From: Dickeya dadantii NCPPB 898
GTDB lineage: Bacteria; Pseudomonadota; Gammaproteobacteria; Enterobacterales; Enterobacteriaceae
Direction: 5' to 3'
Assembly: GCF_000406145.1 (NCBI RefSeq)
Contig: NZ_CM001976.1
Location: 133,186 to 165,185, forward strand
DNA length: 32,000 nt
The stretch's first letter is position 1. The number at the start of each line of letters is the position of its first letter. The notes under the pieces are model-generated. The model saw nothing but the letters and a program-made list of their open reading frames with translations, did no database searches and had not been told where the DNA came from. Of this stretch, positions 10,382 to 27,410 are shown in pieces. The translations under genes were made by a program, and so were the position numbers.

Positions 10382-11652
10382 AACTGCACACGCTGGTTAA
10401 TGCCGTTGTATCGGCGCTGGTGCTGCTGGTGCTGGCCACGTTCGTGATGGGCATGCAACTGAGTCTGGATGGGACTCAACTGGTGGTGCACGGCGCGGAA
10501 AAAGTGCGCTGGATGTGGATTATCGCCGCCTGTGTGCTGGTGTTCCTGTTTCAACTGCTGCGTCCCGTGCTGGCGCAGGGGGCGAAGAAAGTGTCCGGCC
10601 CCGGCTTGGTGCTGCCGAGTTTTGACGGCAGTACGCCGCGGCAGAAACTGCTGGCGCTGGCGCTGATCATCGCCGCCGTTGCCTGGCCGTTCGTGGTGTC
10701 GCGCGGTACGGTGGATATCGCCACGCTGACCATGATTTACATCATTCTGGGTCTTGGCCTGAACGTGGTGGTGGGGTTGTCCGGTCTGCTGGTGCTGGGA
10801 TACGGCGGTTTCTACGCCATCGGCGCTTACACCTATGCGCTGCTGAGTCACTACTACGGCCTCGGCTTTTGGCAGTGTTTGCCGCTGGCGGGCCTGACGG
10901 CGGCGCTGTCCGGTTTCCTGCTGGGATTCCCGGTGCTGCGGCTGCGCGGCGACTATCTGGCGATCGTCACCCTCGGGTTCGGCGAGATCGTGCGTATCCT
11001 GCTGCTCAACAACACCGGTTTTACCGGCGGCCCGAACGGCATCAGTCAGATTCCGAAGCCGACCTTTTTCGGCCTGGAGTTCAGCCGCTCGCCGCGCGAA
11101 GGCGGTTGGGATACCTTCCATCACTTCTTTGGCCTGACCTACGACCCCAGCGACCGCATCATCTTCCTGTACATGGTGGCGCTGTTGCTGGTGTTGCTGA
11201 CGCTGTTCGTCATCAATCGTTTGCTGCGCATGCCGCTGGGCCGCGCCTGGGAAGCGCTGCGCGAAGACGAAATCGCCTGCCGTTCGCTGGGCCTGAGCCC
11301 GACTAAAATCAAGCTGACCGCGTTTACCATCAGCGCGGCGTTCGCCGGTTTCGCCGGTACGCTGTTCGCCGCCCGTCAGGGGTTCGTCAGCCCGGAATCC
11401 TTCACCTTCGTCGAATCGGCCTTCGTGCTGGCCATCGTGGTGCTGGGCGGAATGGGCTCGCAGTTTGCGGTGATTCTGGCCGCCATTCTGCTGGTGGTAT
11501 CGCGCGAGTTGATGCGTGACCTGAACGAATACAGCATGTTGCTGCTGGGCGCTCTGATGGTGCTGATGATGATTTGGCGCCCGCAGGGGCTGCTACCGAT
11601 GAAGCGTACGCAGATCAAGTTGCAGGTTGAGAAGAAGGAAGAGCAGGCATGA
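10378..11652 (+). CDS. livM: Branched-chain amino acid ABC transporter permease LivM
   Basis: 424 aa. Long identical stretches to remembered LivM ([60 protein letters not shown]). ATGA overlap with livH. Confidence 0.93.
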
Positions 11653-12419
11653 GCACGCAGCCATTATTGTCGGTCCGGGGCCTGATGATGCGCTTCGGCG
11701 GCCTGCTGGCGGTCAACAACGTCGAGCTGGATTTGCATCAGGGCGAGATCGTGTCGCTGATCGGCCCCAACGGCGCCGGTAAAACCACCGTGTTTAACTG
11801 CCTGACCGGTTTCTACCGCCCCACCGGCGGCACCATTTTGCTGCGCGATCAGCATCTTGAAGGTTTGCCGGGCCAGCAGATTGCCCGCATGGGCGTGGTG
11901 CGCACCTTCCAGCACGTGCGCTTGTTCCGTGAGATGACGGTGATTGAAAACCTGCTGGTGGCGCAACATCAGCACCTCAAGAGCGGCGTGTTCGCCGGTC
12001 TGCTGAAGACGCCGGCGTTTCGCCGCGCCGAAGCCGATGCCCAGCAGCGCGCCGCCGTCTGGCTGGAGCGGGTGGGCTTACTTGAGCTGGCAAACCGTCA
12101 GGCGGGGAATCTGGCCTACGGCCAGCAGCGTCGGTTGGAGATCGCCCGCTGCATGGTGACCCGCCCGGAACTGCTGATGCTGGATGAACCGGCCGCCGGG
12201 CTGAACCCGAAAGAGACGGAAGAGCTTAACGAGCTGATTATCGACCTGCGCGGCAACCACCAGGTTTCCGTGCTGTTGATCGAGCATGACATGAAGCTGG
12301 TGATGGGCATTTCGGACCGGATTTACGTGGTGAATCAGGGCACGCCGCTGGCGAACGGCACCCCGGCTGAAATTCGTAATAACCCGGATGTGGTCCGTGC
12401 GTATCTGGGGGAAGGATAA
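11649..12419 (+). CDS. livG: Branched-chain amino acid ABC transporter ATPase LivG
   Basis: Walker [10 protein letters not shown], signature [12 protein letters not shown], Walker [12 protein letters not shown]. Overlaps livM by 4 nt. Confidence 0.93.
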
Positions 12420-12425
12420 AACGTT

Positions 12426-13127
12426 ATGTTGTCATTGAATCAGGTTTCTGCGCACTACGGCAAAATCCAGGCGCTGCATCAGGTCAGCCTGCATATCAAT
12501 CAGGGCGAAATCGTGACGCTGATTGGCGCCAACGGTGCGGGCAAAACCACCCTGTTGGGGACACTGTGCGGCGAGCCGCGCGCCTCGGAAGGGTCGATCG
12601 TTTTCGACGGCAAGGACATTACCGACTGGCAGACGGCGCGCATCATGCGCGAAGCCATCGCCATCGTGCCGGAAGGCCGCCGGGTATTTTCCCGCATGAC
12701 GGTGGAAGAGAATCTGGCGATGGGCGGATTTTTCGCCAGCCGCGAGCAATATCAGCAGCGCATTGCGCGCGTGTACGACCTGTTCCCGCGGTTGTATGAG
12801 CGCCGCATCCAGCGTGCGGGCACCATGTCCGGCGGTGAGCAGCAAATGCTGGCTATCGGCCGTGCGCTGATGAGCCAGCCGCGTTTGCTGTTGCTGGACG
12901 AACCGTCGCTGGGGCTGGCGCCGATCATCATTTTGCAGATTTTCGACACCATCCAGCAGCTGCGCGAAGAAGGCATGACCATCTTTCTGGTGGAGCAGAA
13001 CGCCAATCAGGCGCTGCGTCTGGCGGATCGCGGCTACGTGCTGGAAAACGGTCGCGTGGTGCTGGAAGACACCGGCGATGCTTTGTTAGCTAACGAAGCC
13101 GTGCGTTCTGCCTACCTTGGCGGTTAA
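12426..13127 (+). CDS. livF: Branched-chain amino acid ABC transporter ATPase LivF
   Basis: Walker A GANGAGKTT, signature MSGGEQQMLAIGRAL, Walker B LLLLDEPSLGLAP. Confidence 0.93.
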   Translation: MLSLNQVSAHYGKIQALHQVSLHINQGEIVTLIGANGAGKTTLLGTLCGEPRASEGSIVFDGKDITDWQTARIMREAIAIVPEGRRVFSRMTVEENLAMGGFFASREQYQQRIARVYDLFPRLYERRIQRAGTMSGGEQQMLAIGRALMSQPRLLLLDEPSLGLAPIIILQIFDTIQQLREEGMTIFLVEQNANQALRLADRGYVLENGRVVLEDTGDALLANEAVRSAYLGG

Positions 13128-13197: not shown

Positions 13198-14382
13198 ATG
13201 TCAACGGATGGGTTACTGGCGCAGCGTATGGCGCGCCTGAAAAGCTCCGCGATTCGTGAATTGCTCAAACACAGCAAAATGGACGGGGTGATTTCGTTGG
13301 CGGGCGGCATTCCTTCTGATGCGTTGTTTGATTTCCAGGGACTGAATGAAGCGACCCAACTGGCGATTACCGAACAGCCGAAATCGGCGTTCCAGTATGG
13401 CCTGACCGAAGGCAGCCCGCTGCTGCGTGAGCGTATCGCCGAGCTGTGCGCGCTGCGTGGCGTTCACACGCAGGCGCAGGACATCGTGGTCACCGCCGGT
13501 TCCCAGCAGGCGCTGGATCTGGTGATGCGCGCTATCACCAACCCGCAGGATATCTTTGTGGTAGAGCGCCCGACCTATCTGGCGGCGTTACAGACGCTGG
13601 AACTGGCGGAAGCGCAGGTAATGTCGGTGTCGTCCGACGAAAACGGCATGGTGGTGGACGAACTGGCCGCGCTGCTGGAAACCACGCGCATCAAAGGCGT
13701 CTATCTGGTGCCGAACTTCGGCAACCCCAGCGGCGTGACCCTGAGCGACGCGCGTCGCCGTCAACTGGTGGCGCTGGCCGCCCGCCACGATTTCCTGATC
13801 GTGGAAGATGACCCGTACGGCGAACTGCGTTTCACCGAAGAACGCCACGCCACCCTTTATCAACTGGCGAAAGAGGCCGGGCACGCCGATCGCGTGGTGT
13901 ATACCTCGTCGTTCTCCAAAATCCTGGCACCGGGGCTGCGTCTGGGCTGGGCGATTCTGCCCGACTGGCTGCTGCATAAAGTGGCGATCATCAAACAGGC
14001 CGCCGATCTGCACGCCAGCTCGCTGTCGCAGACTATCGTCGAATACTATCTGGGTACCGGGCGCTTGCCGGCGCAGATTGACAAGATCCGTCAGGCTTAT
14101 CGCCAGAAAGGCGAACTGCTGTCCGAACTGATGGTCAGTGAGCTGGGCGATGTGATCAGCTTCAATCAGCCGAAAGGCGGCATGTTCCTGTGGGCGCGTT
14201 TCCGTCAGCCGTTCGATACCACCGCCTGGCTGCAAAAAACGCTGGCGCAGGGCGTGGTGTTCGTGCCCGGCGAGTTCTTCTTTGCCGATAATCCGGACCA
14301 GTCAACGCTGCGCCTGTCGTTCGCCACCGCGACCGAAGAGCAGATGCACGAGGCGGTTGCCCGCCTGCGTCGCGCGCTGTAA
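13198..14382 (+). CDS. PLP-dependent aminotransferase, class I/II (ARO8 / 2-aminoadipate-transaminase-like, no DNA-binding domain)
   Basis: ~394 aa. LKSSAIRELLK, ISLAGGIP, NPSG, IVEDDPYGELRF and SSFSKILAPGLRLGW (the PLP lysine) are fold-type I aminotransferase motifs. The start could instead be GTG 13186. Confidence 0.8.
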   Translation: MSTDGLLAQRMARLKSSAIRELLKHSKMDGVISLAGGIPSDALFDFQGLNEATQLAITEQPKSAFQYGLTEGSPLLRERIAELCALRGVHTQAQDIVVTAGSQQALDLVMRAITNPQDIFVVERPTYLAALQTLELAEAQVMSVSSDENGMVVDELAALLETTRIKGVYLVPNFGNPSGVTLSDARRRQLVALAARHDFLIVEDDPYGELRFTEERHATLYQLAKEAGHADRVVYTSSFSKILAPGLRLGWAILPDWLLHKVAIIKQAADLHASSLSQTIVEYYLGTGRLPAQIDKIRQAYRQKGELLSELMVSELGDVISFNQPKGGMFLWARFRQPFDTTAWLQKTLAQGVVFVPGEFFFADNPDQSTLRLSFATATEEQMHEAVARLRRAL

Positions 14383-14391
14383 CCAGCGATG

Positions 14392-14414
14392 ACCGCTGCC
14401 GTTTCGGCAGCGGT
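14392..14414 (+). terminator. Hairpin between the convergent aminotransferase and MCP1 genes
   Basis: Perfect 10-bp stem ACCGCTGCCG / CGGCAGCGGT with a TTT loop. The T tail is weak (TGTT). Confidence 0.45.
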
Positions 14415-14512
14415 TGTTCAAGCGAGACAAGGTACGGATTGCCTCCATTCTGCTAACGTTCTCTCCCTGCTTAAGGCGCTCATCCCATTGATGTCGGCCA
14501 TGGACATCTGCC

Positions 14513-16150
14513 CTAATGCGTAGCCAACTGCTGGCCGGCGACCGGTACTAACGAGTGCTCGTCCGCGGTGTCCAGCCGCTTGCGGGAAATCACGTCGTCC
14601 ACCACGAACACGCTGATGACCTCCACCAGATGCGCCGCCTGATGATTCAGGTTGTCGGTAGCACAGGCGGATTCTTCAACCAGCGCCGCATTTTGGTGGG
14701 TAACCTGATCCAGTTGAGCGATGGCGGTGTTAATCTGCGCTATGCCTTGCTGCTGTTCGTTGGTGGTGATGCCTATCTCGTTGATCAGTTGCGCCACCTG
14801 ACGGGATTGCTCCAGCAGTTCGCTGATGGTGCTGCCCGCCAGATTGACCCGATCTGCCCCGGTTTCGATCTTCTTCACGCTTTCGATGATCAGCGATTTT
14901 ATTTCGCGGGCGGCGGAGGCGGAGTGCTGCGCCAGCGAACGCACCTCGTGAGCGACGACCGCAAAGCCTTTGCCTTCTTCGCCCGCCCGAGCCGCCTCGA
15001 CCCCGGCGTTCAGCGCCAGGATGTTGGTCTGGAAGGCAATATTGTCGATCAGGCTGATAATTTCGACGATTTGATGTGAGCTTTGGGTGATGTCCGCCAT
15101 GGTAGCGACCACGTCCCCCACGACCTGATTGCCTTTTGATGCCGTCTGGCTGGTGGCGTTGGCCAGCTCAGCCGCCATCCTGATGGTTTCGACGTTATGG
15201 CTGACCGCGTTGCTGATTTGCTCCATGGACGCCGCGGTTTGTTGCAGACTGGCGGCCTGCTCTTCGGTGCGCTGGCTGAGGTCATTCGTGCCGGCGGCGA
15301 TTTCATTGGCGCCCGAGGCGATCGCATGGCTGCTCTGACTGACCTGCTCGACGATGTTGATCAGCCCGCCGCGCATCTGGTCGATGGCGGCCAGCACGCT
15401 GCTGTTGTCTTTATCCCGTATTGGGATGGTCGTGATCAGGTTGCCCTGTGCGATTTGCTGGGCGATGCTGGCGGCATCCGCTGGTTCGCCGCCCAGCTTG
15501 CTTCTCACCTGTCGGGTGATAAACCAGGCCACCAGACAGCCTATTGCCATAGCGATGAGCGCCAGCGTCAGCATGGTTTGCCCGGCGCTATCCGCCCGCT
15601 GTTCCGAGCTGTGCGCCAGGTCGGCGGTGGCGTTTTTCTGATAATTGATAATATCATCAATGGCGTCGAAGACTTTATTTTGCGCCGGCTGGAATTCATT
15701 CAGAATAACCGCTTTTGCCTCTTCATCCTGGTTTTCCAATGCCAGCGCTTCAGCCTTTTTCAATGCCTGAATATTTTCAGGCCGTACGCTTTCCAGATTT
15801 TTCAATAATACTTTCGCATCTGGGGAAACGGTCATACTGCTGAATGTATTGATGATCTCTGTGCTTTTATCAATGGTTTCCCTGATGCGTTTACTTTCCG
15901 CTGCCATTTGCGCCTGATCGGTCATCATGACCATATTTCGAATGGCGTTGGCGACGATATTAATATTGTCTTTGTAGTTATGGATAAGTACCAGTTTCAC
16001 TAATCGGTTTTGCGCGAGCGTTTCGATATTTCCGCTTAACTGGTGCAATTGAAAACGACCGAAACTGGCGACCAGAAAGCCAATGATAATGACGGCGGCG
16101 AAACTAATACTGAGCAGCGTGCCCAATTTCATCTTTTTGAATAAGTTCAT
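14513..16150 (-). CDS. Methyl-accepting chemotaxis protein, 4-helix-bundle-type sensor (MCP1, most divergent paralog)
   Basis: Start trimmed to [10 protein letters not shown]. It has TM1, a ~160-aa helical periplasmic region, TM2 ending AWFITRQ, and HAMP. Signalling motifs are [26 protein letters not shown], the tip [22 protein letters not shown], and [10 protein letters not shown]. There is no C-terminal pentapeptide. Confidence 0.9.
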
Positions 16151-16777
16151 AATCTTTCTTGCCTGTGTGTAGACGCCCGCGTGCACGACGGCGATGCCAG
16201 AACGAAAGGGGGATCACGCCGCCGTCGCTATCACGGTTAAGGCCTGACATGCCCGTTATTTATTGGGTTGTGACCCTTTTTTCCGATGTTTTTGTTGCAG
16301 GTTGGTCGCCCCGGCACTCAACGACAACATCTGCCTGCGGTCTTAAACTGGCTCCGCGAGCGCTGAATGTTTGCGTTCAATGACGAGGCGCAGACGCATG
16401 TACCATGCACGCCCGTTAAAGGACACCGCCACGCTACTCTTTGGTCTGGTGCTGGACCCTCGCTCAAGCGGGCGAGAGCAAAAAGAATGGATGCTGGCTT
16501 AGGCATACGTTACGCATCATGCGGGTGCAGCCTGGATTCAGGCTTGTCGAACCGCGCCGTTCTATCCGAACGGCAGCGACAAGCGATGATTATTTGAACT
16601 ACTCATTTGACTATGAGCGGCGTTTTGCCGTTTGTCTAATCACCTCCCGGTGTATTTTTTGTCGACAAGGCCGGGAGGCGCTCGGGTGACCTGACTCGGC
16701 CCGGCGAGCACGCCCAACCACGTGTATGGCATCGCCTGACGGTTCACATATATTTATGTTTTAACAGACCACAGGCC

Positions 16778-16804
16778 TAAAGGCGGCGGGCGCGGTGCCG
16801 TTAT
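16778..16804 (+). promoter_or_regulatory. Candidate sigma-28 (FliA) promoter for the orphan gene
   Basis: TAAAGGCG (16778-16785), an 11-nt spacer, then GCCGTTAT (16797-16804). The remembered consensus is TAAAGTTT-N11-GCCGATAA. It lies ~105 nt upstream of ATG 16910. Confidence 0.55.
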
Positions 16805-16909
16805 GTTTCAATATATGTCAGAAAGACTCTGCCTGATGGCGCGTGATTACACCTCCCAGGCTCTTCGTCTTTGCTGATGGACCATTACCGGCACTGCATA
16901 GGATTTCCG

Positions 16910-17827
16910 ATGACTTCTCCCATCTCTTTCAACCGTTCTGCCGCGGGTACGTCAGCGCAGAATGCCAGGACCGATAACGACGCCGGTAGTACGGCTCGTG
17001 CCGGCGCGCAAGCCGATGCTTCTCAGGAACAACCGTCGGTCACCTCCGTGCTGGTGCAATTCAGCGACGAGGTCCGTAAGCGGATTGATAGCGCAATGCG
17101 GACCAATATGAGCAAAATTAACGAGTCTAAACAGGATCTGGCTCGTGGGCGCATCGAAGAAATCAAACGGCGCATCCAGATGCTGAAGATGATGATGATG
17201 ATGTCGCCCGGTCAGTCGGTTCCTCCCGGCGTACTGCGCGAGATTCGCCAACTGGCCGCAGAGCTGGGCCAGGCGGCGAAAACCTTGAATGACGGCGGGG
17301 GAAACGGCGTGGCTAATGCCGGAACCGCGGGCGGGGAAGGCTCGTCCGGCGCCGTTGCCAATGGCGTCGGCGATGCTTCCGCTTCTGCGTTGTCCGGGGC
17401 GATGTCCGTGTCTGCCGCAGGTGAGAACGCGTCTGCCGAATCCGATGGTCTGGGGGGCGAAGACCAGGCTGTCGGCGCGTCGCCGGTGGCAAAAAGCGGT
17501 GAGGAGGCATCCGCGCAGGAGGCGGAGCAATTGCAGAACGTGGTGGCTGCAATTACCGAGCGGGGAGCCGGGTCGCAGCAGCGCCGGATGGATGCGAAGT
17601 TGGTACAGGACGCCGTTCGCGAGCTGAAATCGCTGCTCGCGATGGTGAAAAATGCCAGCAAAAATGACGACAAAGAAGCCCAGAAGCAGATTCAGGCTAT
17701 CAATCAATCTATTGCCGATATTGAGAAGACGGTTCAGTCGATGAACATGACGGGAAGCGGGGCGGACATCAGCGTCGATCTGTCTGTCGGCCCAGCGGGT
17801 AATGTCTCGATTGATGTGCAGGTCTGA
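16910..17827 (+). CDS. Orphan acidic Gly/Ala/Ser-rich protein with two helical segments; function unknown
   Basis: 305-aa ORF from ATG 16910, with AGGA 6 nt upstream. The track ORF begins 13 codons earlier at a TTG. Codon usage is host-like. It has no Cys/Trp/Tyr/His. I recognise no family with confidence. Confidence 0.7.
   Translation: MTSPISFNRSAAGTSAQNARTDNDAGSTARAGAQADASQEQPSVTSVLVQFSDEVRKRIDSAMRTNMSKINESKQDLARGRIEEIKRRIQMLKMMMMMSPGQSVPPGVLREIRQLAAELGQAAKTLNDGGGNGVANAGTAGGEGSSGAVANGVGDASASALSGAMSVSAAGENASAESDGLGGEDQAVGASPVAKSGEEASAQEAEQLQNVVAAITERGAGSQQRRMDAKLVQDAVRELKSLLAMVKNASKNDDKEAQKQIQAINQSIADIEKTVQSMNMTGSGADISVDLSVGPAGNVSIDVQV
17189..17203 (+). repeat. (ATG)5 trinucleotide repeat encoding Met5 inside the orphan gene
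   Basis: Read directly: ctgaag ATGATGATGATGATG tcg, giving LK-MMMMM-S. Confidence 0.95.
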
Positions 17828-17861
17828 CAGTCAGGCGTGCAGCGCGGCGGCGTGCAATGAT

Positions 17862-17893
17862 TCGGGGAGTCGGCATTCTTTCCTCCTCCCCGA
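17862..17893. other. Hairpin between the convergent orphan gene and MCP2
   Basis: 8-bp stem TCGGGGAG / CTCCCCGA with a 16-nt loop. No clear T tract on either strand. Confidence 0.3.
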
Positions 17894-17925
17894 TGACTTG
17901 CTCGGTGTACCGCTTGCGCCGTAGG

Positions 17926-19545
17926 TTAGCGTGACGCCAACGCCAGACGCCAGTCGCCGCCGTGTGAACACTGAGGCTGAGCGGCGTGACCGTCGAGTAC
18001 GAACACATTCATCAGTTGCACCAGATGACCGGCCTGAGCGTTCAGGCTGTCGGCGGCACTGGCGGACTGCTCCACCAGCGCGGCGTTCTGCTGGGTGACC
18101 TGATCGAGCTGGCTGACCGCCTGATGGATCTGGCCGATGCCGGACTCCTGCTCGGTGGTGGTCACTCCGATTTCCTTAATCAATTCAGCGACATGATGGG
18201 CCTGAGAAACAATCTCTTCCATCGTGACGCCCGCATGGCCGACGCGTTGCGAACCGCTTTCCACCTTTTCCATGCTCTCGGTGATCAGTTCTTTGATTTC
18301 CCGGGCGGCGGAAGCGGAGCGCTGCGCCAGCGAACGCACCTCGCCGGCCACCACCGCGAAGCCGCGGCCCTGCTCGCCGGCGCGAGCGGCTTCCACCGCC
18401 GCATTCAGCGCCAGAATGTTGGTCTGGAAAGCAATGCCGTCGATAACGCTGATAATATCGCCGATTTTACGTGAACTGCTGGTGATCTCCTCCATGGTGC
18501 GGATGACGTCGCTCACCACTTCGCTGCCTTTGGCGGCCGTCTGGCTGGCGGTGGTGGCAAGCTGGGCGGCTTCGCGCACCGTATCGCCGTTCTGGCGAAT
18601 GGTCTGGCTGATTTGTTCCATTGAGGCGGCGGTTTGTTGCAGGCTGGCAGCCTGCTCTTCGGTGCGCTGGCTGAGATCGGCGTTGCCGATGGCGATCTGC
18701 TGCGAGCCGGTGGCGATGGATTCGCTGCTCTGGCGTACCTGACTGACGATATGGCTAAGGCTGTCGCGCATGGTGCGCATGGCGGCCAGCAGGCTGTGGT
18801 GGTCGCTGGTTTTCAGCATGACATCAATGGACAGGTCGCCCTGCGCCACCTGCTGGGCGATATGCGAGGCATAGGTCGGCTCGCCGCCCAGTTGTCCTTT
18901 CACCCGGCGGGTGATCAGCCAGGCCACCAGCGCGCCCAGTAGGGCGCTGATAGCGGTTACGATCAACAGCAGGGTGCCGGAATAGCTGGCATCCGCCATG
19001 AAACGCTGAGACATGGCGATGGTGTCGTTTTTGTGTTCGGTGATCATGGTGTCCATGGCGTTGAACAGCGTGGTCTGCGTGGTCAGCAGGTCGCCCAGAA
19101 TCAGCGCGCGGGCTTGCTCCTGCTGGCCGGACAGGCTCAGTTCAATCACTTTTCGCACCGCGTTGGAATAAGGCGGGCGCGCCTGATTAATTTGCGCCAG
19201 TAATTCGCGTGATTTTTTCAGCTTCAGTTTTTCATCCAACTGCCTGAGTAAGTCGTTGTTACGGTCGATGAGCTGTTCGAGATCGTGCTTTTCCTGAGCG
19301 AGGTGAGCGGCGTCGGTCTGTATGGCGCTTTCCCGAATAATGCGGGCGGCCGCATTCAGATTGTCTTTAATTTCCTGCATGGCGATCAGGTTATTCAGGC
19401 GAATATTGGACAGGTAATCCAGATTATTGCCCACATGAATTAGCTGGCTGCGCCCGAAAATCGCGACGATAAAACCGATCAGGATGACCAGTATAAAACC
19501 GGATCCGAGCATCGCGCCGAGCTTCATATTTTTTAGTATCTGCAT
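17926..19545 (-). CDS. Methyl-accepting chemotaxis protein, 4-helix-bundle-type sensor (MCP2)
   Basis: Start trimmed to [10 protein letters not shown] (AAGG upstream). TM2 ends AWLITRR. It has [42 protein letters not shown] and [10 protein letters not shown], and ends ..DWRLALASR with no pentapeptide. Confidence 0.92.
17995..18921. repeat. Direct repeat copy A (~0.93 kb, MCP2 HAMP + signalling module)
   Basis: Aligns base for base with 20188-21114 at a constant offset of 2193 nt. 18314-18437 is identical over 124 nt by my count. Confidence 0.85.
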
Positions 19546-19917
19546 TATGTGCCTTATTCTATTGGGTATTGCTGTCATCAATAGATTCGCATCCCTGGTG
19601 TGAAGCGAACTGTGTGTATTGGTCAATGATGGGTGCCGGCGGAAAGACTCTGCCGAAACAATCTATGGCGAATTGATCTCAACCTGTTAGCGGTGGGTAG
19701 CGAAATGATTTTTTAGTTAATTAACTTTTTAACAAAATGTATGCATTTGTTTACCGTGACAACATGCAGAAGGCTGGGCGGAATATAAAAGCAGGCTATT
19801 ATTAACTGATAAAAAATATCATCCGCTAAAGCATTTAACGCCATTAAACATTATGGCCGATGAACGCGTATGCACCGGCGGAAAATGGGGTCAGCGCAAC
19901 GCGAATAATTCAGGGTA

Positions 19918-20045
19918 TATACCCGTCATACTTCAAGTTGCAGGTGTGTTGGCTGCGTTCGTTCACCCGAATCACTTACCCGAGTAAGCTCATCGGGATT
20001 CACTCCCTTGCCGCCTTACTGCAACTCGAATTATTTAGGGTATAC
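19918..20045. repeat. ERIC (enterobacterial repetitive intergenic consensus) element
   Basis: 128 bp with TATACCC...GGGTATA termini. The core TCACCCGAATCACTTACCCGAGTAAGCTCATCGGGATTCAC matches the remembered ERIC2 primer site at about 17/22 and the ERIC1R site at 18/22. Confidence 0.85.
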
Positions 20046-20109
20046 GGCGTCTTTATGGGGAAATGGAATGCGTTTTCCGCTTCCCCACGGTATTAATCAG
20101 AACGGTGGA

Positions 20110-21738
20110 TTAGCCTGATGTCAGCGCCAGACGTAAATCGGCCCGGGGAGGATACGCGGCGTGCTCGTCTTGCCGGTTATTTCCCGCGACCACAAATACA
20201 TTCATCAACTGCACCAGATGGCGGGCTTGATCGCTCAGGCTGTCGGCGGCGCTGGCGGACTGCTCCACCAGTGCGGCGTTCTGCTGGGTGACCTGATCGA
20301 GCTGGTTAACCGCCAGATTAATCTGGCTGATGCCGGATTCCTGCTCGGTCGTCGTGACGCCGATTTCCTTGATCAGATCGGCGACGTGGCGCGCCTGCGT
20401 CACGATATCGTCCATAGTGGTGCCCGCGTGACCGACCAGTTGCGAACCGCTTTCCACCTTTTCCATGCTCTCGGTGATCAGTTCTTTGATTTCCTGGGCG
20501 GCGGAGGCGGAGCGCTGCGCCAGCGAACGCACCTCGCCGGCCACCACCGCGAAGCCGCGGCCCTGCTCGCCGGCGCGAGCGGCTTCCACCGCCGCATTCA
20601 GCGCCAGAATGTTGGTCTGGAAAGCAATGCTGTCGATGACGCTGATAATGTCGCCGATTTTGCGCGAGCTGGCGGTAATGTCGCCCATAGTGCGGATGAC
20701 ATTGCTTACGACTTCGCTGCCTTTGGCGGCGGTATCGCTGGCGGTGGTGGCGAGCTGGGCGGCTTCACGCACCGTTTCGCCGTTCTGGCGGATGGTCTGG
20801 CTGATTTGCTCCATTGAGGCGGCGGTTTGTTGCAGGCTGGCGGCCTGCTCTTCGGTGCGTTGGCTGAGGTCGGCGTTGCCCATCGCAATCTGCTGCGAGC
20901 CGGTGGCGATGGATTCGCTGCTCTGGCGCACCTGACTGACGATATGGCTGAGGCTGTCGCGCATGGTACGCATGGCTGCCAGCAGGCTGTGGTGGTCGCG
21001 GGTTTTCAGCATGACATCGACGGACAGGTCGCCCTGTGCCACCTGCTGGGCGATATGCGAGGCATAAGTCGGCTCGCCGCCCAGTTGCCCCTTGATGCGA
21101 CGGGTAATCAGCCAGGCAATCAGACTGCCGGTGACGGCAATCAGCGCCGCCAGCGACAGCATCAGTATACCGGCGTTGCTGGCTCGTGATTCCGAGTCGT
21201 CAGCCGTGGTGGAAGTGGCGCTCTTCTGGTAGGCCAGCAGGCTGTCGATAACCTTGAACATGTTCTCCTGAGCGCGGCGCACGTCGGTGAGGATCAAGTT
21301 TCTTGCATCGTCGTCTTTATTCTCCAGCCCTTTCTCGATCGCTCTTCCTACCGCATCCTCATAAACAGGACGGTTTTGGTCCAACTGAGCTATCAGGGCC
21401 TGCTGTTCAGGGGTGACTGCCACTTTATGGAGGATGGCGATAATGTCGTCATTTCTGGGCGCCATGTTATCGAGACGCTGTTTTTCAACGATCATTTGTT
21501 GGTGATCGGAAAGCAACGCAATATTTCTGATTACCCGGGCGGCAATATTCAGATTATCTTTGTATTCCTGTATCAACAGCAGATTGGTGATCCGCTCTTT
21601 TGATAACGTCTGAATATTTGTACTGAGCTGCCGTAACTGTAACTGACCATAAATCGCTACCAGAAAACCGATAACGATTACCATTGCGAACCCGGTGCCT
21701 AACATGGAGCCTAGCTTCATTTCTTTAAAAAAACGCAT
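20110..21738 (-). CDS. Methyl-accepting chemotaxis protein, 4-helix-bundle-type sensor (MCP3)
   Basis: [10 protein letters not shown] start (AGGTGA upstream). TM2 ends AWLITRR. The signalling module is nearly identical to MCP2. It ends ..DLRLALTSG with no pentapeptide. Confidence 0.93.
20188..21114. repeat. Direct repeat copy B (~0.93 kb, MCP3 HAMP + signalling module)
   Basis: Partner of 17995-18921. Confidence 0.85.
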
Positions 21739-21778
21739 AACGTCACCTTTTTTATATAAGATTTATTTTTATCCCTGA

Positions 21779-21910
21779 TATACCCGTCATACTTCGCGTT
21801 GCAGGTGCGTTGGTTTCGTTATCGGCCTTTTCAGCTTCATCCCATTCAGGGCTGTGGCAAGCCGCGTTGAACTCTGCCTCCTTTCTGCAATTCGAATTAT
21901 TTTGGGTATA
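21779..21910. repeat. ERIC-like chimera: ERIC termini with a replaced core
   Basis: The left ~40 nt (TATACCCGTCATACTTCgcGTTGCAGGTGcGTTGG) and right ~30 nt (CTGCAAtTCGAATTATTTtGGGTATA) match the ERIC copy at 19918-20045. The central ~60 nt is unrelated. Confidence 0.75.
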
Positions 21911-22031
21911 GATATTGGCTTCCGTAGCGTGTTTCAGGCAATAACAAGACCGCTGGCGAAATTTTTTCGTCAGGGAAAGGTTGGCCTGCAGGTGTGTATT
22001 AGACCGTTAATTTACTAATTGATTAATAATT

Positions 22032-22081
22032 CTAATCAAGATGAGAAGCATATAAACTAATCAAGATGAGAAGTGTATAAA
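22032..22081. repeat. 25-bp tandem direct repeat, two copies (CTAATCAAGATGAGAAG(CA/TG)TATAAA)
   Basis: Read directly: 22032-22056 and 22057-22081 differ at 2 adjacent bases. Confidence 0.9.
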
Positions 22082-22509
22082 AATTATCCTCGGGTGTTTT
22101 TAATACCCGAAATGAATGCTCTTCCTAAGCAAATTGCAGTATGGAGGGTTTTTACGTGTTTGTCGACAAATCGTGATAAAAGTTTTTCTTATTACTCAAT
22201 GACTTTTCTACTAACGTAATTAGAAGCAATTTTTTAATGGAAGTTACAAAAAATAAATACTCAATCAAAGACCTGCATTTTGTGATGGTATGAAAATTAT
22301 CGTGATATAAAAATGGCTCCTTTTGATATTTACTGATGACATTTATTCGCCATTATTAAAGCAATATGCTTTGTATGGTTATTTGGACTGTAGCCGTAGC
22401 CATTATCCGTTGCCAGTGCTGTCGCTGGTTTTAGCCGGGTGCTGGCGCTTTGGCACTTGTTTTCTGTGGTTCATCGGTGGCGCAGGAAGCGGTTTGTCAG
22501 GGAGGACTG

Positions 22510-22545
22510 GATTCGAAAAGAAACCGCCACGGTTACCGTGGCGGT
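22510..22545 (-). terminator. Rho-independent terminator of MCP4
   Basis: On the minus strand: ACCGCCACGG-TAA-CCGTGGCGGT, followed by TTCTTTTCG. It lies 17 nt after the stop codon. Confidence 0.75.
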
Positions 22546-22561
22546 CAGGAGAACGGGAAAT

Positions 22562-24223
22562 TTAGAACTGTTCCCAGTTGTGGGTACTGCCTTTATTCGC
22601 CAGCGCCGGTTTTTTTAGTGCTGGCGAGGTGTGTGACTGTTGCCGGGGCGACGTCTTGCTAAACGTGCCGTGAATAGTAAATACGCTCATCAGTTCCACC
22701 AGTTTTGCCGCCTGATCGCTCAGGCTGTCGGCGGCGCTGGCGGATTCTTCAACCAACGCGGCGTTTTGCTGGGTTGCGCTGTCCATCTGAGTGATGGCCT
22801 GATTGATTTGCGAAATACCGGATTCCTGTTCCTGTGTGGTGACGCCGATTTCGCTAATCAGATTGGCGACATGCTGCGCCTGGGTGACGATATCAACCAT
22901 GGTTTCACCGGCGTGCGCCACTAACTGGGAGCCGCTTTCCACTTTTTCCATACTGGTGGTGATGAGCTCTTTAATTTCCCGAGCGGCGGAGGCGGATCGC
23001 TGCGCCAGATTTCTCACCTCGCCGGCCACCACCGCGAAGCCGCGGCCTTGTTCGCCGGCGCGGGCCGCTTCCACCGCGGCGTTGAGCGCGAGGATATTGG
23101 TCTGGAAGGCGATGCTGTCAATCACGGTAATGATGTCGCCAATCTTACGGGAACTGGTGCTGATGTCGCTCATCGTGGTGATCACGTTGCGTACGACTTC
23201 GTTGCCTTTGGTGGCGGTCTGGCTGGCCGCGCTGGCGAGTTGAGCGGCTTCGCGTACGGTGTCGCCATTCTGGCGGATAGTCTGGCTAATCTGCTCCATA
23301 GAGGCGGCGGTCTGCTGTACGCTGGAAGCCTGCTCCTCAGTGCGGCGGCTCAGATCGTTGCTGCCGATGGCAATTTCGCTGGAGCCGGTGGAAATGGACG
23401 CGCTGCTATCGTGCACCTGCTGCACAATCCCGCTTAGTCTGGCGCGCATATCATTCATGGCGGCCAACAGGCTGGTGGTATCGCCCGATTGCAGTTCGAC
23501 GTTGATGGCCAGATTGCCGCTGGCAATCTGACTGGCAATATCAGAGGCATACGCAGGCTCACCGCCCAGCAGTTTTTTGATTCTGCGGGCAATCAACCAG
23601 GCAATGGCGATGCCGAGTACCGTCGAGATACCGGCGAATGTCAGCATCAGCATGCCGGCGAAGCTCGCGGACTGGCCCGCCTCGTCAGCCGAACGCCGGG
23701 TGTCGCTTTTTTGGTAGCTCACCATGTCGTTGATGGCTTTGAAGTAAGTGTCCTGAGCCGGTTTCACTTCATTCATGATGACGGCTTTGGTTTCATCCGG
23801 CTTGTTATCCTGGATGAATGACAAGGCTTTTTGCGTGGCGGCGAGGCTGGCTGGACGAGCCTGATCTATCACATCAAACAGCGCTTTTTCACGGGGAGTG
23901 CTCGCCAGTTCGGCGATGCGCTTTAGAATTTCGTTATTTCGTGTAATTGTTTTCGTAATCAGCTGTTTTTCCTGCGCTACCTGATCCGGTGCGATAAACA
24001 GCGTCAGGTTGCGTATCGAAATCGCGACGCTGTTCAGGTTATCTTTCAGTTCCTGCACCAGTAGTAGCCCTTCCAGTTGATCGCCGGCTAATGCGTTGAC
24101 ATTGTCGCTTTGCTGCCGCAATTGAAATTGCCCATAGGTAGAGACAAAGAAACTAATAATCAGCACGATGGCGAAACCGGTGCCGAGCATGGTAGTAAGT
24201 TTCATGTTCTTAATAATGCTCAT
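22562..24223 (-). CDS. Methyl-accepting chemotaxis protein, 4-helix-bundle-type sensor, NWEQF pentapeptide (MCP4)
   Basis: [10 protein letters not shown] start (GGGGA upstream). TM2 ends AWLIARR. It has [22 protein letters not shown] and [10 protein letters not shown], and ends ..[10 protein letters not shown]. Confidence 0.93.
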
Positions 24224-24435
24224 GGTTTATCCCCTAAGTGTTATTTTTAATCACGACAAACCGGTGCGTATAAAACAGAGCTAATAAAAATGCTGACAGG
24301 TTATTTGTGATTTCGGGGATTAATTTAGTTGATGAATCTTTGTTATATCTTAAGAGGTGAAGAATTAATTGGTTTTATTTTTTGTTTTTTATTATCAATG
24401 TTTTATTTTTTTATTATCATCTTCGTGATGCTCGT

Positions 24436-24469
24436 TTAATAATAGTTATGCTATTAATAATAGTTATGC
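24436..24469. repeat. 16-bp motif TTAATAATAGTTATGC repeated at an 18-bp period, two copies
   Basis: Read directly at 24436-24451 and 24454-24469, in the AT-rich spacer ~215-245 bp upstream of the MCP4 start. Confidence 0.85.
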
Positions 24470-24639
24470 GCGTGACTTTATATCGGTTGACGATATTTAA
24501 AATTGGGGAAAAGCGTTTTTCAACAAAGACGAGTGTGACTGTTGAAAGGCGATGAATGTCGGGTAATAGACAGTGTTTTAAAATAGTTGCTTATCCCAAT
24601 GGGGTCCGCCGTTGATAAGGTTTCGGTTATCAGGGGCTG

Positions 24640-24673
24640 AATTCAGAAGATACCGCCACGTAGCCGTGGCGGT
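24640..24673 (-). terminator. Terminator hairpin of MCP5
   Basis: On the minus strand: ACCGCCACG-GCTA-CGTGGCGGT, then ATCTTCTGAATT. The stem sequence is identical to that of the MCP4 terminator. Confidence 0.6.
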
Positions 24674-24689
24674 CAGAGGAAAGATAAAC

Positions 24690-26372
24690 TCAGAATTGTT
24701 CCCAGTTGCTGTTGCTGGCGTTATTCGCCAGCGCCAGTTTGGATGGCATCGGTTTTTTCTGGCCGGTTCCCGGTGTTTGCAGCAGGGTGGTTTGGTGGTT
24801 AAAGGTATTCTGAATATTGAATATGCTCATCAGTTCCACCAGCCGTGCTGCCTGGTCGCTCAGGCTGTCGGCGGCGCTAGCCGACTCTTCCACCAGAGAG
24901 GCGTTCTGCTGGGTGACCTGATCGAGCTGGTTAACCGCATCGTTAATCTGCGAAATGCCGGATTCCTGCTCGTGGGTAGTCACGCCGATCTCGCCAATCA
25001 AATCCGCTACGTGACGCGCCTGTTTCACCAGTTCGTCAATGGTGGACCCGGCTTCGCTCACCAGCGTTGAGCCGGTTTCCACTTTTTCGACGCTGGCCGT
25101 GATCAACTCCTTGATTTCCTTGGCGGCGGAAGCGGAGCGCTGCGCCAGATTTCTCACCTCGCCCGCCACCACGGCAAAGCCGCGGCCCTGTTCGCCGGCG
25201 CGGGCGGCTTCTACCGCGGCGTTGAGCGCCAGAATGTTGGTCTGGAAGGCAATACCGTCGATGACGCTGATAATGTCGCCGATTTTGTGCGAACTGACGG
25301 AGATATCTTCCATAGTGCGGACGATATTGTTGACGGCTTCACCCCCTTTGGCGGCGGTCGAGCTGGCCGACTGCGCCAGTTTGGTGGCGGTGCGCACGGT
25401 ATCGCCGTTCTGGCGGATGGTCTGACTCATCTGCTCCATGGAGGCGGCGGTCTGTTGCAGGCTGGCGGCCTGTTCTTCGGTGCGCTGGCTCAGGTCGGTG
25501 CTGCCGGCGGCGATTTCGCTGGCGCCGGTGGCGATGGATTCGCTGCTCTGGCGTACCTGAGTGACGATCTGCCCCAGTTTTTCCCGCATGTCGTTCATGG
25601 CCGCCAGCACGCTGTGATCGTCGCCCGCGCGCAGTTCGACGTTAAACGCCAGATTGCCGTCGGAAATTCGCTGGGCAACCGCCGCCGCGTAAACCGGCTC
25701 GCCGCCCAGTTGGCCTTTGACGGTGCGGGTGATCAGCCAGGCGGTCAGCGCGCCGAGCACCGCGGCGACCAGCGCCAGCGCCAGCATTAATGTGCCGTCT
25801 GAACGGGCGTTCTGCATTGAATCCGCCACCACGTTCATGGTGATTTTTTTCTGGAAGTCGAGCATGTTGTCCAGCGCTTTGAACACGCCGTTCTGAGCGG
25901 TTTGCATGTCGTTGAGAATCAGTTCGCGAGCTTGCTCGCGCTGCTCTGACTGGCCGGAAATACCCAATTGAACCGCATTATTGAATGCCTTCAGGTAAGC
26001 GGGGCGCGCCAGCGTCAGCTGGTTCAGCTGGTCGCGGGTTTCCGGCGTATCAAGCCGCTCCGACAGCTGTTTGAGCACCTCGGTGTTGCGGGCGATTTGC
26101 CGGTCGATCAACTGCTTTTCACGCGCGATGCGTTCAGGGTCGTTACTGAGCGCAATATTACGCACCAGACGGGAATTGGTATCGAAGCCGGTTTTGGCTT
26201 CCTGAATCAACATCATATTGGTGAGCGTGGTGGTGGAGAGGTGGTCGATGTCGTCCCCCAGTCCTGCCAGTTGGGTTCGGCCGAATGTTGCTACCAGCAG
26301 GCCGATCACGATGACCAGGGCGAATCCGGCACTCAGCATGGTGCCCAGTTTGGTTTTTTTCAGCGCGTTCAT
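24690..26372 (-). CDS. Methyl-accepting chemotaxis protein, 4-helix-bundle-type sensor, NWEQF pentapeptide (MCP5)
   Basis: Start trimmed to [10 protein letters not shown] (AAGGA 5 nt upstream). TM2 ends AWLITRT. It has [22 protein letters not shown] and [10 protein letters not shown], and ends ..[10 protein letters not shown]. Confidence 0.92.
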
Positions 26373-26868
26373 AGATGTCCTTAACGTCGTGTATTCCATG
26401 CGTTCATTCGGGACCTCATCCAGGAGGTAAAATGAAAATAGCTCTATGTGTGTATAATTTGGGTTAGTTCTATTTCATGTGAATAAATTTTGCTGGTCAG
26501 CCGATAGATCTCCTGTTTATTACGATTATTTTGTAAATAGATAGAGAGGTAATAGTCTTATATAAACCGATAACAAGAATAGTTAACTCCAATAATTAAG
26601 ATAAGAAAGTAATTGAAATTTACAGTGGAGCGTAGTGGCTAATAAGAGTAAGGAATAGAAATTGGTTTGTCGAATGCAATATATAAACTTTTCAGATAAA
26701 GCATCAAAAGAATAATTTTCGGTGGTATTTCTGCAATTACGATCGCATTTTTGCCGTAAGGGGGATGGTGATAGCCGGATAATCCATCATCACGCCGGAA
26801 TGCGCAGAAACGCCGACAAGCGCACAGAGACAAACTAATCCGCCGAAGCGAGCGGACGGCGCGAATAG

Positions 26869-27063
26869 TACCGATTACGCTGCGGTTTGCTATGGCAAAG
26901 GGTTCCTGCGGGATGCACGGCGCCGGGATATATCGGCGGGTATGCCAGCTTTATCGGCTTTGATAAGCAAAATGGCAATGCGATTGCCGTACTGCAAAAC
27001 GCCTTTAACTGGAGTAACTATTTGGGGATTGCGCTACTCACGGATTTAGCGAAGAGAGACTGA
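26869..27063 (+). pseudogene. Possible 3' remnant of a beta-lactamase-fold serine hydrolase gene
   Basis: An open frame with no start codon reads ..LWQRVPAGCTAPGYIGGYASFIGFDKQNGNAIAVLQNAFNWSNYLGIALLTDLAKRD*. This resembles the G.TGG(Y/F).S....P......V.L.N C-terminal region of AmpC/esterase-type hydrolases. An adjacent frame reads ..GMHGA.., which suggests a frameshift. There is no intact upstream part. Confidence 0.35.
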
Positions 27064-27190
27064 CCGACGGTGGGAACAACATGCATCGGGTACGGCGCTG
27101 ATGTGCAGTCCGTATTTTTGTGGGCGTTCCCGTCTATTTATTCCGGCTATCATCCTGGCGCAATACGGCTTTTCTTTTTTTATAACGTCA

Positions 27191-27214
27191 TGATTATTTT
27201 ATAAAAAATAATCA
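27191..27214. promoter_or_regulatory. Perfect 10-bp inverted repeat TGATTATTTT-ATAA-AAAATAATCA
   Basis: Read directly. It lies ~50 bp upstream of the first Pho box. Confidence 0.5.
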
Positions 27215-27265
27215 CATATCGTATCGACTTGCGGCGGGTTTTTCTGTTCGCTGCAATCGTATGCA

Positions 27266-27319
27266 CTTGTCATCTGGTTGTCATGATGCAGTTATTTTTC
27301 TGTCATCCGGGCGTGTCAT
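27266..27319 (+). promoter_or_regulatory. Pho boxes (PhoB binding sites) of the ugp promoter
   Basis: Four (C/T/G)TGTCAT heptamers sit at 27267, 27278, 27300 and 27313. The first pair has the canonical 11-bp period (TTGTCATctggTTGTCAT). The second pair is spaced 13 bp. A possible -10 (CATAAA) lies at ~27332. Confidence 0.7.
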
Positions 27320-27360
27320 GTTACCTGCCGAACATAAAACGCGCTTTTTCGCTCATCGCG

Positions 27361-27410
27361 CCCACAATGATCAGCATCCGCAATGATCAGCACCCACATG
27401 ATCTCAGGAG
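27361..27410. repeat. ~17-bp tandem repeat, ~2.7 copies, in the ugpB leader (CC(CA/G)CAATGATCAGCA(T/C))
   Basis: CAATGATCAGCA occurs at 27364-27375 and 27381-27392. A degenerate third copy (CACATGATCTCAGGAG) carries the ugpB Shine-Dalgarno. Confidence 0.8.

Follow-up and report, generated by a model that had tools for sequence, protein, structure and literature searches.

Concerted evolution by RecA-dependent gene conversion is known for the tufA and tufB genes of Salmonella. Among chemoreceptors, tar and tap of Escherichia coli form a tandem pair of the 36H type, and the NWETF-type pentapeptide, which serves CheR/CheB docking, is present in only a subset of Tsr-like receptors and is missing from low-abundance ones. 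Ribosomal RNA operons also evolve in concert by RecA-dependent gene conversion (PMC8022953). In Campylobacter jejuni, the receptors Tlp2, Tlp3, and Tlp4 have sensors that are only ∼30% identical but identical signalling domains, a pattern credited to "domain duplications"; the signalling-domain tree matches the genome tree, and the sensor tree does not (PMC9769880). In Pseudomonas aeruginosa, PctA, PctB, and PctC are encoded by neighbouring genes, with signalling domains >96% identical and sensors <56% identical (PMC6974571). Dickeya dadantii 3937 has 47 MCP genes (PMC6638404). We found no paper tying MCP genes to gene conversion or concerted evolution.

The window analysed here, a stretch of 32,000 nucleotides from the plant pathogen D. 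dadantii, contains five tandem receptor genes, all on the minus strand, in the order MCP5-MCP4-MCP3-MCP2-(one further gene)-MCP1: MCP1 (14513..16150), MCP2 (17926..19545, 539 aa), MCP3 (20110..21738, 542 aa), MCP4 (22562..24223, 553 aa), and MCP5 (24690..26372, 560 aa). The start of MCP1 was set by its 545-aa orthologs, and that of MCP2 follows ortholog annotation, the open reading frame list reaching a TTG at 19626. Each of the five carries an MCPsignal domain (PF00015, E = 4e-49 to 2e-55) and a 4HB_MCP_1 sensor (PF12729) over approximately residues 7-185, and hydrophobic TM1 and TM2 segments flank the periplasmic sensor in the five-paralog alignment. MCP3 residues 284-525 align without gaps to residues 284-525 of E. 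coli Tsr (E = 2.7e-85), and the paralogs are gapless from HAMP to NVFV, so that the cytoplasmic bundle has the length of that of Tsr, with no heptad indels. On sequence grounds, all five are Tsr-like (36H-type) transmembrane chemoreceptors with four-helix-bundle sensors. A lookup for proteins exactly matching MCP3 gave none, but MCP3 is 98% identical to a D. dadantii protein and has orthologs throughout Dickeya and Musicola. MCP1 is the most diverged member, its cytoplasmic module being 66-70% identical to those of the other four.

The C termini differ across the array. MCP4 and MCP5 end in the pentapeptide NWEQF; MCP1, MCP2, and MCP3 have no pentapeptide of this type, the tails of MCP2 and MCP3 ending in WRLALASR and DLRLALTSG, respectively. 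The idea that a premature stop had truncated former pentapeptide tails to give the RLALASR ends was rejected, since the alignment showed no convincing downstream coding remnant. GWERF is the C-terminal sequence of Musicola MCP3 and of D. poaceiphila MCP2. MCP1-3 would presumably rely on the pentapeptide-bearing MCP4 and MCP5 for adaptation.

A sequence-only reading of the window had drawn attention to a module shared by MCP2 and MCP3, extending from the end of TM2 (the AWLITRR motif) through HAMP and the kinase-control module. The two copies lie on the minus strand at 17995..18924 in MCP2 and, at an offset of 2193, at 20188..21117 in MCP3. The gapless alignment reported for 17995-18921 and 20188-21114 holds, with 833 of 927 bases identical (89.9%), as does an exact run of 124 nt (18314-18437 = 20507-20630), which encodes the hairpin tip (MCP3 residues ∼371-411, in the same numbering as E. 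coli Tsr). Identity collapses where the same reading had placed the border, falling from ∼87% to ∼52% at the first codon of AWLITRR (18924 in MCP2, 21117 in MCP3), and a breakpoint test at the TM2/HAMP border gives a maximum chi-square of 240, compared with 15.8 for the highest among 500 permutations. MCP4 and MCP5 are, as had been claimed, more diverged, with 74-77% identity to MCP2 and MCP3 in the same module. Synonymous divergence, a check that it had proposed, differs between the two halves: The MCP2 and MCP3 sensors are saturated (dS ∼1.7), and the cytoplasmic module has a dS of 0.35, compared with 0.73-1.44 for the module in other paralog pairs. When polymorphic sites were examined with a Sawyer-type run test, none of 2000 whole-gene permutations produced a run as long as the one observed, and for the module by itself P = 0.012. 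The similarity of MCP2 and MCP3 is far above chance.

The module is nevertheless less alike, and much less uniform, than the description of it as almost the same, with few differences even at synonymous sites, would imply. The copies differ at 94 bases (pS = 0.28), and sliding pS ranges from 0.00 to 0.73. The most similar piece, putatively the youngest conversion tract, covers the hairpin tip (minus strand, 18250..18437 in MCP2 and 20443..20630 in MCP3; Tsr-numbering residues ∼371-432): its 188 nt, which contain the exact run, are 98.9% identical, with pS of 0.00-0.05. HAMP (18700..18903 in MCP2, minus strand; 20893-21096 in MCP3) shows intermediate identity. Between the tip and the 3′ end lies an apparently unconverted island of 137 nt (18112..18248 in MCP2, minus strand; 20305-20441 in MCP3) with 76% identity, where the encoded proteins remain similar despite saturation at synonymous sites (pS 0.6-0.73) and divergence equals that of unrelated paralogs. 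The expected loss of identity ∼20 codons before the stops is seen as a fading ∼22-29 codons upstream, but identity then returns, after indels, in the last eight codons including the stop. This terminal patch (MCP2 17926..17949, minus strand, CGTCTGGCG...TAA; MCP3 20110-20133) has 19 of 24 nt identical. A similar GGGGA...TCCCC stem-loop lies 3′ of both genes.

We compared the array, which is syntenic in nine other genomes, across these nine related genomes, with the genes of the array as the conversion partners considered. A scan of species genomes with the MCP3 sensor returned a single locus, that of D. undicola, and the remaining arrays were retrieved individually. In the sensors of MCP2 and MCP3, orthologs cluster together: 43 four-taxon informative sites favour grouping by genome and 968 grouping by ortholog. 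In HAMP the proportions are reversed (48 versus 23), and still more so at the tip (70 versus 6, although for D. dadantii versus D. fangzhongdai the tip has only 4 versus 3). Segment trees, which are neighbour-joining trees without bootstrap and for some segments draw on few informative sites, cluster the tip within genomes in all species and HAMP within clades; the segment MH1 and the island group by ortholog. Species-level codon bias is ruled out as the source of the pattern in HAMP and tip, since each of the nine other paralog pairs, which serve as controls, follows orthology in all segments; MCP1 likewise groups by ortholog throughout. At the tip, pS is 0.09 between MCP2 and MCP3 of the window, compared with 0.48-0.59 between D. 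dadantii and D. zeae orthologs; for HAMP the values are 0.20 within genomes of the D. dadantii clade and 0.40-0.51 between those orthologs. Three marks of concerted evolution are thus present at the locus: paralogs closer than orthologs at synonymous sites, discordant adjacent segments with breakpoints that have statistical support, and specificity to the pair.

These results suggest that the sequence shared by MCP2 and MCP3 very probably reflects recurrent, non-reciprocal gene conversion within the chromosome, in which sequence is copied between the cytoplasmic halves of adjacent paralogs. The cross-species comparison thus bears out the proposal that conversion homogenises the cytoplasmic module, except that it reaches patches (HAMP and the hairpin tip) and not the whole. 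Conversion appears to be recurrent, lineage-specific, and patchy, and HAMP appears to have been homogenised independently in separate Dickeya clades. At the tip, D. dadantii MCP2 and MCP3 share bases like those of D. dianthicola MCP3, whereas MCP2 and MCP3 of D. fangzhongdai differ there; this points to MCP2 as the likely recipient of MCP3-type tip sequence in the D. dadantii lineage, with MCP3 as the donor of the youngest tract. Relative to the other D. dadantii strain, there is no support for a conversion specific to the strain of the window, whose longer run depends on two single-base differences.

The process would be homology-dependent, with short tracts of tens to a few hundred bases concentrated in HAMP and near the hairpin tip. 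The tip, conserved at the DNA level in all paralogs, may seed strand exchange, and machinery of the RecA type presumably drives it. The module is a mosaic, with young and middle-aged pieces next to others never converted, because tracts arose at different times in different lineages, and conversion would stop at TM2/HAMP because the DNA upstream, only ∼50% identical, does not permit a heteroduplex; selection against sensor conversion is probably a second reason for this limit. Conversion may also bring a selective benefit. We think it unlikely, however, that homogenisation is more than a by-product of homology and is kept by selection at precisely two interfaces, HAMP and the hairpin tip (which forms trimers and binds CheA/CheW), with the parallel loss of the pentapeptide from MCP2 and MCP3 part of the same co-evolving unit. 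If it were so, new sensors would plug into one co-adapted output, and the array would be a platform for new chemotactic specificities.

The sequence-only reading had offered, as its other explanation, the swapping of sensor cassettes onto a common output module. In its simplest form, one old recombination or duplication set an MCP3-type output behind the MCP2 sensor, and the copies then diverged without later exchange. The sensor and module trees do disagree in the way that this predicts, the MCP2 sensor being the sister of that of MCP5 (and the MCP3 sensor of that of MCP4) while the MCP2 module pairs with that of MCP3; the 5′ border at AWLITRR is identical in all six species having both genes; and MH1 and MH2a/b group by ortholog. 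In MH1 and MH2b, moreover, pS is lowered (0.26-0.34 in the D. dadantii clade) despite the by-ortholog grouping, so that part of the similarity stems from one older event, either conversion or swap. A founding swap of sensors onto one output module may have preceded the Dickeya radiation. As the sole cause, however, a swap is contradicted by the by-genome or by-clade grouping of HAMP and tip, unlike that of any control pair, by the low synonymous divergence of the tip within the window, and by the saturated island, which would not be there had the module been inherited whole; nor do we find a single breakpoint with by-ortholog grouping on both sides in all descendants. Other species also appear to have used other conversion partners and breakpoints: Exact runs of 95-345 nt join paralogs within D. 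undicola, D. fangzhongdai, and D. poaceiphila, the longest linking the D. undicola paralog X with MCP3 and having its 5′ border after HAMP, and D. poaceiphila MCP2 is 95%-100% identical at the tip to the MCP4 copies of that species. We therefore regard a single swap as quite improbable, and a swap is not needed once recurrent conversion is accepted.

The repeats that would serve conversion could also support unequal crossing-over, leading to copy-number change and chimeras. A deletion chimera joining the MCP3 sensor to the MCP2 tail, predicted from the sequence alone, exists in D. undicola, in which an MCP3-type gene has final codons of the MCP2 type and is followed by 1.1 kb of the sequence that flanks MCP2 on its 3′ side, and MCP2 itself is missing. 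The prediction that the long repeats would be the substrate fares less well, as the junction lies in the short terminal patch (the counterpart of MCP2 17926..17949). Copy-number variants, also anticipated among relatives, are represented by a tandem MCP4 duplicate in D. poaceiphila.

The MCP3-MCP2 spacer, between the two repeat copies, contains a 127-nt palindromic repeat element (19917..20044, no strand assigned) that is putatively ERIC-like. It is missing from the same spacer in another D. dadantii strain and occurs in other array spacers of other species. Rfam gave no match within 14000-27400. Upstream of the five genes, no sequence fitted the E. coli consensus for sigma-28 (FliA) promoters well, and scans for sigma-70 promoters and terminators did not rise above background except for a strong terminator 3′ of MCP4 (22522-22546).

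Exchange between species has also touched the locus. Within the D. dadantii clade, the MCP3 sensor core occurs as two deeply separated alleles whose distribution conflicts with the species tree, the mark of a separate replacement of the sensor core with borders inside the periplasmic domain and not at TM2/HAMP. Such exchange could contribute to some of the patterns described here. That an allelic import covering both genes made the modules of one genome alike is, however, highly unlikely: An imported orthologous segment cannot make two paralogs mutually identical, the exact runs in the three species above link paralogs, and what separates the tracts, the spacer and the MCP2 sensor, agrees with the species phylogeny (window versus subsp. 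dieffenbachiae, pS 0.06).

The usual account of paralogous chemoreceptors, in which the similarity comes only from strong purifying selection and preferred codons in the signalling domain and the sensor diverges fast, has in its favour that the amino-acid sequence of the hairpin tip hardly varies, that tip pS is somewhat lowered in all pairs (0.25-0.46), and that the Pseudomonas PctA/B/C receptors have been read in this way (PMC6974571). It does not explain why paralogs of one genome agree at synonymous sites where orthologs differ, or an exact run of 124 nt above permutation expectation, and control pairs under equal protein constraint group by ortholog. For HAMP and tip this account is already refuted by the four-taxon controls, and overall we give it a minimal chance. 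An assembly artefact (a collapsed or mis-joined repeat), to which a D. dianthicola draft contig that stops inside MCP3 might point, has a negligible probability, given copies 10% apart with no identical stretch beyond 124 bases and hence no collapse, the same structure in an independent D. dadantii assembly (95%-100% identity per 200-nt window over both genes), and synteny in eight other species. A long exact repeat behind the "partial" D. dianthicola MCP3 was rejected; in a complete D. dianthicola genome the longest run shared by MCP2 and MCP3 is 53 bases, so the draft contig break has another cause.

Recurrent gene conversion between MCP2 and MCP3 is clearly a fresh example of a known process in a tandem family, with no new mechanism. 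It implies that paralog trees built from signalling domains can mislead and that tandem MCP arrays are unstable in copy number, and natural chimeras such as the D. undicola gene reveal which junctions are tolerated. With the tar-tap pair and low-abundance receptors of E. coli the array shares its tandem 36H-type genes, some without the pentapeptide for CheR/CheB docking, whose products would depend on pentapeptide-bearing neighbours; we know of no comparable recent DNA-level homogenisation in tar-tap. With rRNA operons and tufA/tufB it shares non-reciprocal homogenisation within a genome that leaves paralogs closer than orthologs. In those systems, however, homogenisation is full-length and an identical function is kept, whereas in MCP2 and MCP3 it goes no further than a domain border, leaving the sensors and some stretches of the module free to diverge.

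Among chemoreceptors, PctA/B/C are likewise neighbouring paralogs with alike signalling and unlike sensor domains. They have been read as products of duplication and selection, with no conversion test reported (PMC6974571); for MCP2 and MCP3 the by-genome grouping and the control pairs tell conversion apart from selection. Tlp2, Tlp3, and Tlp4 of C. jejuni show the same combination of unlike sensors and alike signalling domains, but they are dispersed dCache receptors of the 28H type with fully identical modules, whereas MCP2 and MCP3 are tandem, four-helix-bundle, Tsr-like receptors whose modules are 90% identical and mosaic, and in which conversion is seen at synonymous sites across species. 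Both the Tlp (PMC9769880) and the Pct (PMC6974571) studies invoke duplication or selection for alike signalling and unlike sensor domains; at the MCP2/MCP3 locus, gene conversion appears to do part of that work, in patches bounded by domain borders.

The five chemoreceptor genes of the array are long ORFs on the minus strand within 14.5-26.4 kb of the window (MCP1, 14513-16150; MCP2, 17926-19545; MCP3, 20110-21738; MCP4, 22562-24223; MCP5, 24690-26372), each encoding a 4HB_MCP_1 sensor and MCPsignal. A Dickeya dadantii protein matches MCP3 at 98% identity, and full-length orthologs occur at 84-90% across Dickeya and 76% in Musicola. Residues 284-525 of E. coli Tsr align gap-free with the cytoplasmic part of MCP3, so the array receptors are Tsr-like, of the 36H type. 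Judged by Pfam content at orthologous loci, a liv-type branched-chain amino-acid ABC operon with an aminotransferase gene flanks the array on one side and a ugp-type ABC operon on the other. The NWEQF pentapeptide terminates MCP4 and MCP5 and is absent from MCP1-3; across their 3′ ends and downstream regions, MCP4 (22536-22612) and MCP5 (24664-24740) have in common a 77-nt stretch of 81% identity that takes in the pentapeptide codons as well as a strong terminator hairpin (22522-22546). Between MCP2 and MCP1, on the opposite strand, lies a conserved gene of 300-318 aa (16871-17827, plus), present in Dickeya and missing from Musicola along with MCP2; it has no above-threshold Pfam match (best AIP3, 22 bits, under the cut-off).

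The sequence-only reading had called the cytoplasmic signalling modules of MCP2 (17995-18921) and MCP3 (20188-21114) near-identical, an observation that is real yet overstated. At a constant offset of 2193, 833 of 927 bases (89.9%) match, and the 124-nt exact run it reported is present (18314-18437 = 20507-20630), but the Nei-Gojobori estimates for the module (pS 0.28, dS 0.35, dN 0.045) make the wording too strong. The proposed break at the TM2/HAMP border is confirmed: a maximum chi-square scan places it at the first codon of AWLITRR, the shared motif ending TM2 (18924 / 21117), with identities of 52% upstream and 87% downstream and a chi-square of 240, compared with a top value of 15.8 among 500 permutations. 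Synonymous divergence lies far lower in the module than in the sensor, where dS is saturated at ~1.7; module dS in other paralog pairs is 0.73-1.44. Identity was also said to end before the stops; it does fade past NVFV, with indels, but it is back in the last eight codons plus stop (19/24 nt).

The module is itself a mosaic. Between MCP2 and MCP3, sliding pS is 0.00-0.05 across 18250-18437, 0.14-0.31 in HAMP and the first methylation helix, and 0.61-0.73 at 18150-18250, the background of unrelated paralogs. Likelihood scans delimit a tract of 98.9% identity (18250-18437 / 20443-20630) and an island of 76% (18112-18248 / 20305-20441). Polymorphic sites were put to a Sawyer-type run test: the whole-gene MCP2-MCP3 run was reached by none of 2000 permutations; restricted to the module, P = 0.012. 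MCP2-MCP5 and MCP3-MCP5 show smaller significant fragments too.

We compared syntenic arrays from a second D. dadantii strain, subsp. dieffenbachiae, D. fangzhongdai, D. undicola, D. zeae, D. poaceiphila, D. chrysanthemi, D. dianthicola, and Musicola paradisiaca. In the sensor tree the orthogroups separate cleanly, MCP2 being sister to MCP5 and MCP3 to MCP4; D. undicola, D. fangzhongdai, and Musicola also carry a sixth type of sensor, X. The module tree conflicts with it: MCP2 and MCP3 are sisters, D. poaceiphila MCP2 falls with MCP4, and X lies inside the MCP3 clade. The conflict was resolved by segment trees, pS tables, and four-taxon counts of informative sites, which for MCP2/MCP3 are sums over distant species pairs. 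Sites grouping the two genes by genome (MCP2 and MCP3 of one genome alike), as against by ortholog (the same gene alike between species), number 43 against 968 in the sensor, 48 against 23 in HAMP, 15 against 72 in MH1, 70 against 6 in the hairpin tip, and 17 against 38 in MH2a. The nine remaining paralog pairs all group by ortholog in every segment, which rules out species-specific codon usage as the source of the by-genome signal.

Other species carry tracts of their own. In D. undicola, an exact run of 345 nt joins X and MCP3, which are ~100% identical from MH1 to the domain end, with the 5′ border past HAMP; the X-MCP3 pairs of D. fangzhongdai and Musicola behave similarly. D. poaceiphila MCP2 has an MCP3-like HAMP, a tip 95-100% identical to its own MCP4 copies, and an MCP4-like tail with pentapeptide. 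MCP2 and MCP3 of the D. dadantii lineage both have the bases of D. dianthicola MCP3 in the tip tract; the two D. fangzhongdai tips are unlike this tract and unlike one another. The distribution of these bases suggests that the tract moved from MCP3 to MCP2 after the D. fangzhongdai split.

Recurrent, short-tract, lineage-specific gene conversion between adjacent paralogs fits these data best. The conversion proposed by the sequence-only reading is thereby supported by the by-genome tip and HAMP and the mosaic module, and refined to a patchy, recurrent process limited by domain borders. Its upstream limit is probably set where DNA homology is lost, at the TM2/HAMP border, and the strongly conserved hairpin tip is probably a favoured seed. 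A single cassette swap would give both genes a shared module but cannot explain the by-genome grouping of MCP2/MCP3 segments or the saturated island within the module; MH1 and MH2b may nevertheless owe their moderate similarity to an older founding event. The control pairs rule out purifying selection as sole cause. Independent assemblies, together with the 10% divergence of the copies, rule out an assembly artefact.

Copy-number change between the repeats, with a chimera of MCP3 sensor and MCP2 tail, had also been predicted. The prediction holds in a relative, D. undicola, whose array lacks MCP2 and contains a natural MCP3::MCP2 deletion chimera (array locus 11540-12760), but its junction lies in a short terminal patch, not in the long repeat: the MCP3-type gene retains the 9-nt tail insertion specific to MCP3, changes to MCP2 type inside the common CGTCTGGCGCT patch, some six codons upstream of the stop, and continues into 1.1 kb matching the window's MCP2 3′ flank at 82% identity. 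Elsewhere, MCP4 is duplicated in tandem in D. poaceiphila, the Musicola array is without MCP2 and the neighbouring unknown gene, and MCP1 is absent at the array site of a complete D. dianthicola genome.

Sensors vary as well. The MCP3 sensor core (21207-21498) has two deeply diverged alleles inside the D. dadantii clade: window and subsp. dieffenbachiae differ over ~100 codons (pS 0.55-0.88, pN 0.22-0.29), with flanks at pS < 0.3 and pN < 0.07 on both sides. The window allele resembles D. dianthicola and that of dieffenbachiae D. fangzhongdai, which looks as if between-species recombination had replaced the ligand-binding core. At the last array position (MCP1), three very different sensor types (D. 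dadantii/fangzhongdai, D. zeae/poaceiphila, and D. undicola/chrysanthemi/Musicola) suggest sensor replacement or turnover. The 'partial' MCP3 proteins of D. dianthicola form a 21-member cluster cut at aa ~401, where one inspected draft contig stops. MCP2-MCP3 identity was rejected as the cause, the longest common run being only 53 nt; another MCP of near-identical sequence, encoded elsewhere in that genome, may explain the truncation.

In most Dickeya, MCP2 and MCP3 end in ...RLALASR without pentapeptide (17926-17990 and 20110-20190). Since GWERF ends Musicola MCP3 and D. poaceiphila MCP2, the pentapeptide appears to have been lost from both genes, either in parallel or through exchange; a coding remnant was looked for downstream of their ends and not found. 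Palindromic elements of ~127-130 nt with common termini TATACCC...GGGTATA occupy the MCP3-MCP2 (19917-20044) and MCP4-MCP3 (21778-21909) spacers. The former, whose core we take to be ERIC-like, is missing from the same spacer of another D. dadantii strain and found in other spacers in other species, and is therefore an insertion polymorphism.

Of the 47 MCPs of D. dadantii 3937, 23 have 4HB sensors, and its ligand-binding regions were reported to show 'no duplications' (PMC6638404); roughly half of the receptors of Dickeya and Pectobacterium bear pentapeptides (PMC7390727). Shared modules under divergent sensors are known from C. jejuni Tlp2/3/4 (signalling domains identical, sensors about 30% identical; PMC9769880) and P. 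aeruginosa PctA/B/C (>96% and <56%; PMC6974571), a pattern credited in the latter to post-duplication selection (PMC6974571). A literature search of incomplete coverage found nothing that links gene conversion or concerted evolution to MCP paralogs; the link is an obvious one to draw. Since gene conversion is well established in bacterial multigene families such as rRNA operons (PMC8022953), the MCP2-MCP3 locus is a new, well-documented example of an already known process.
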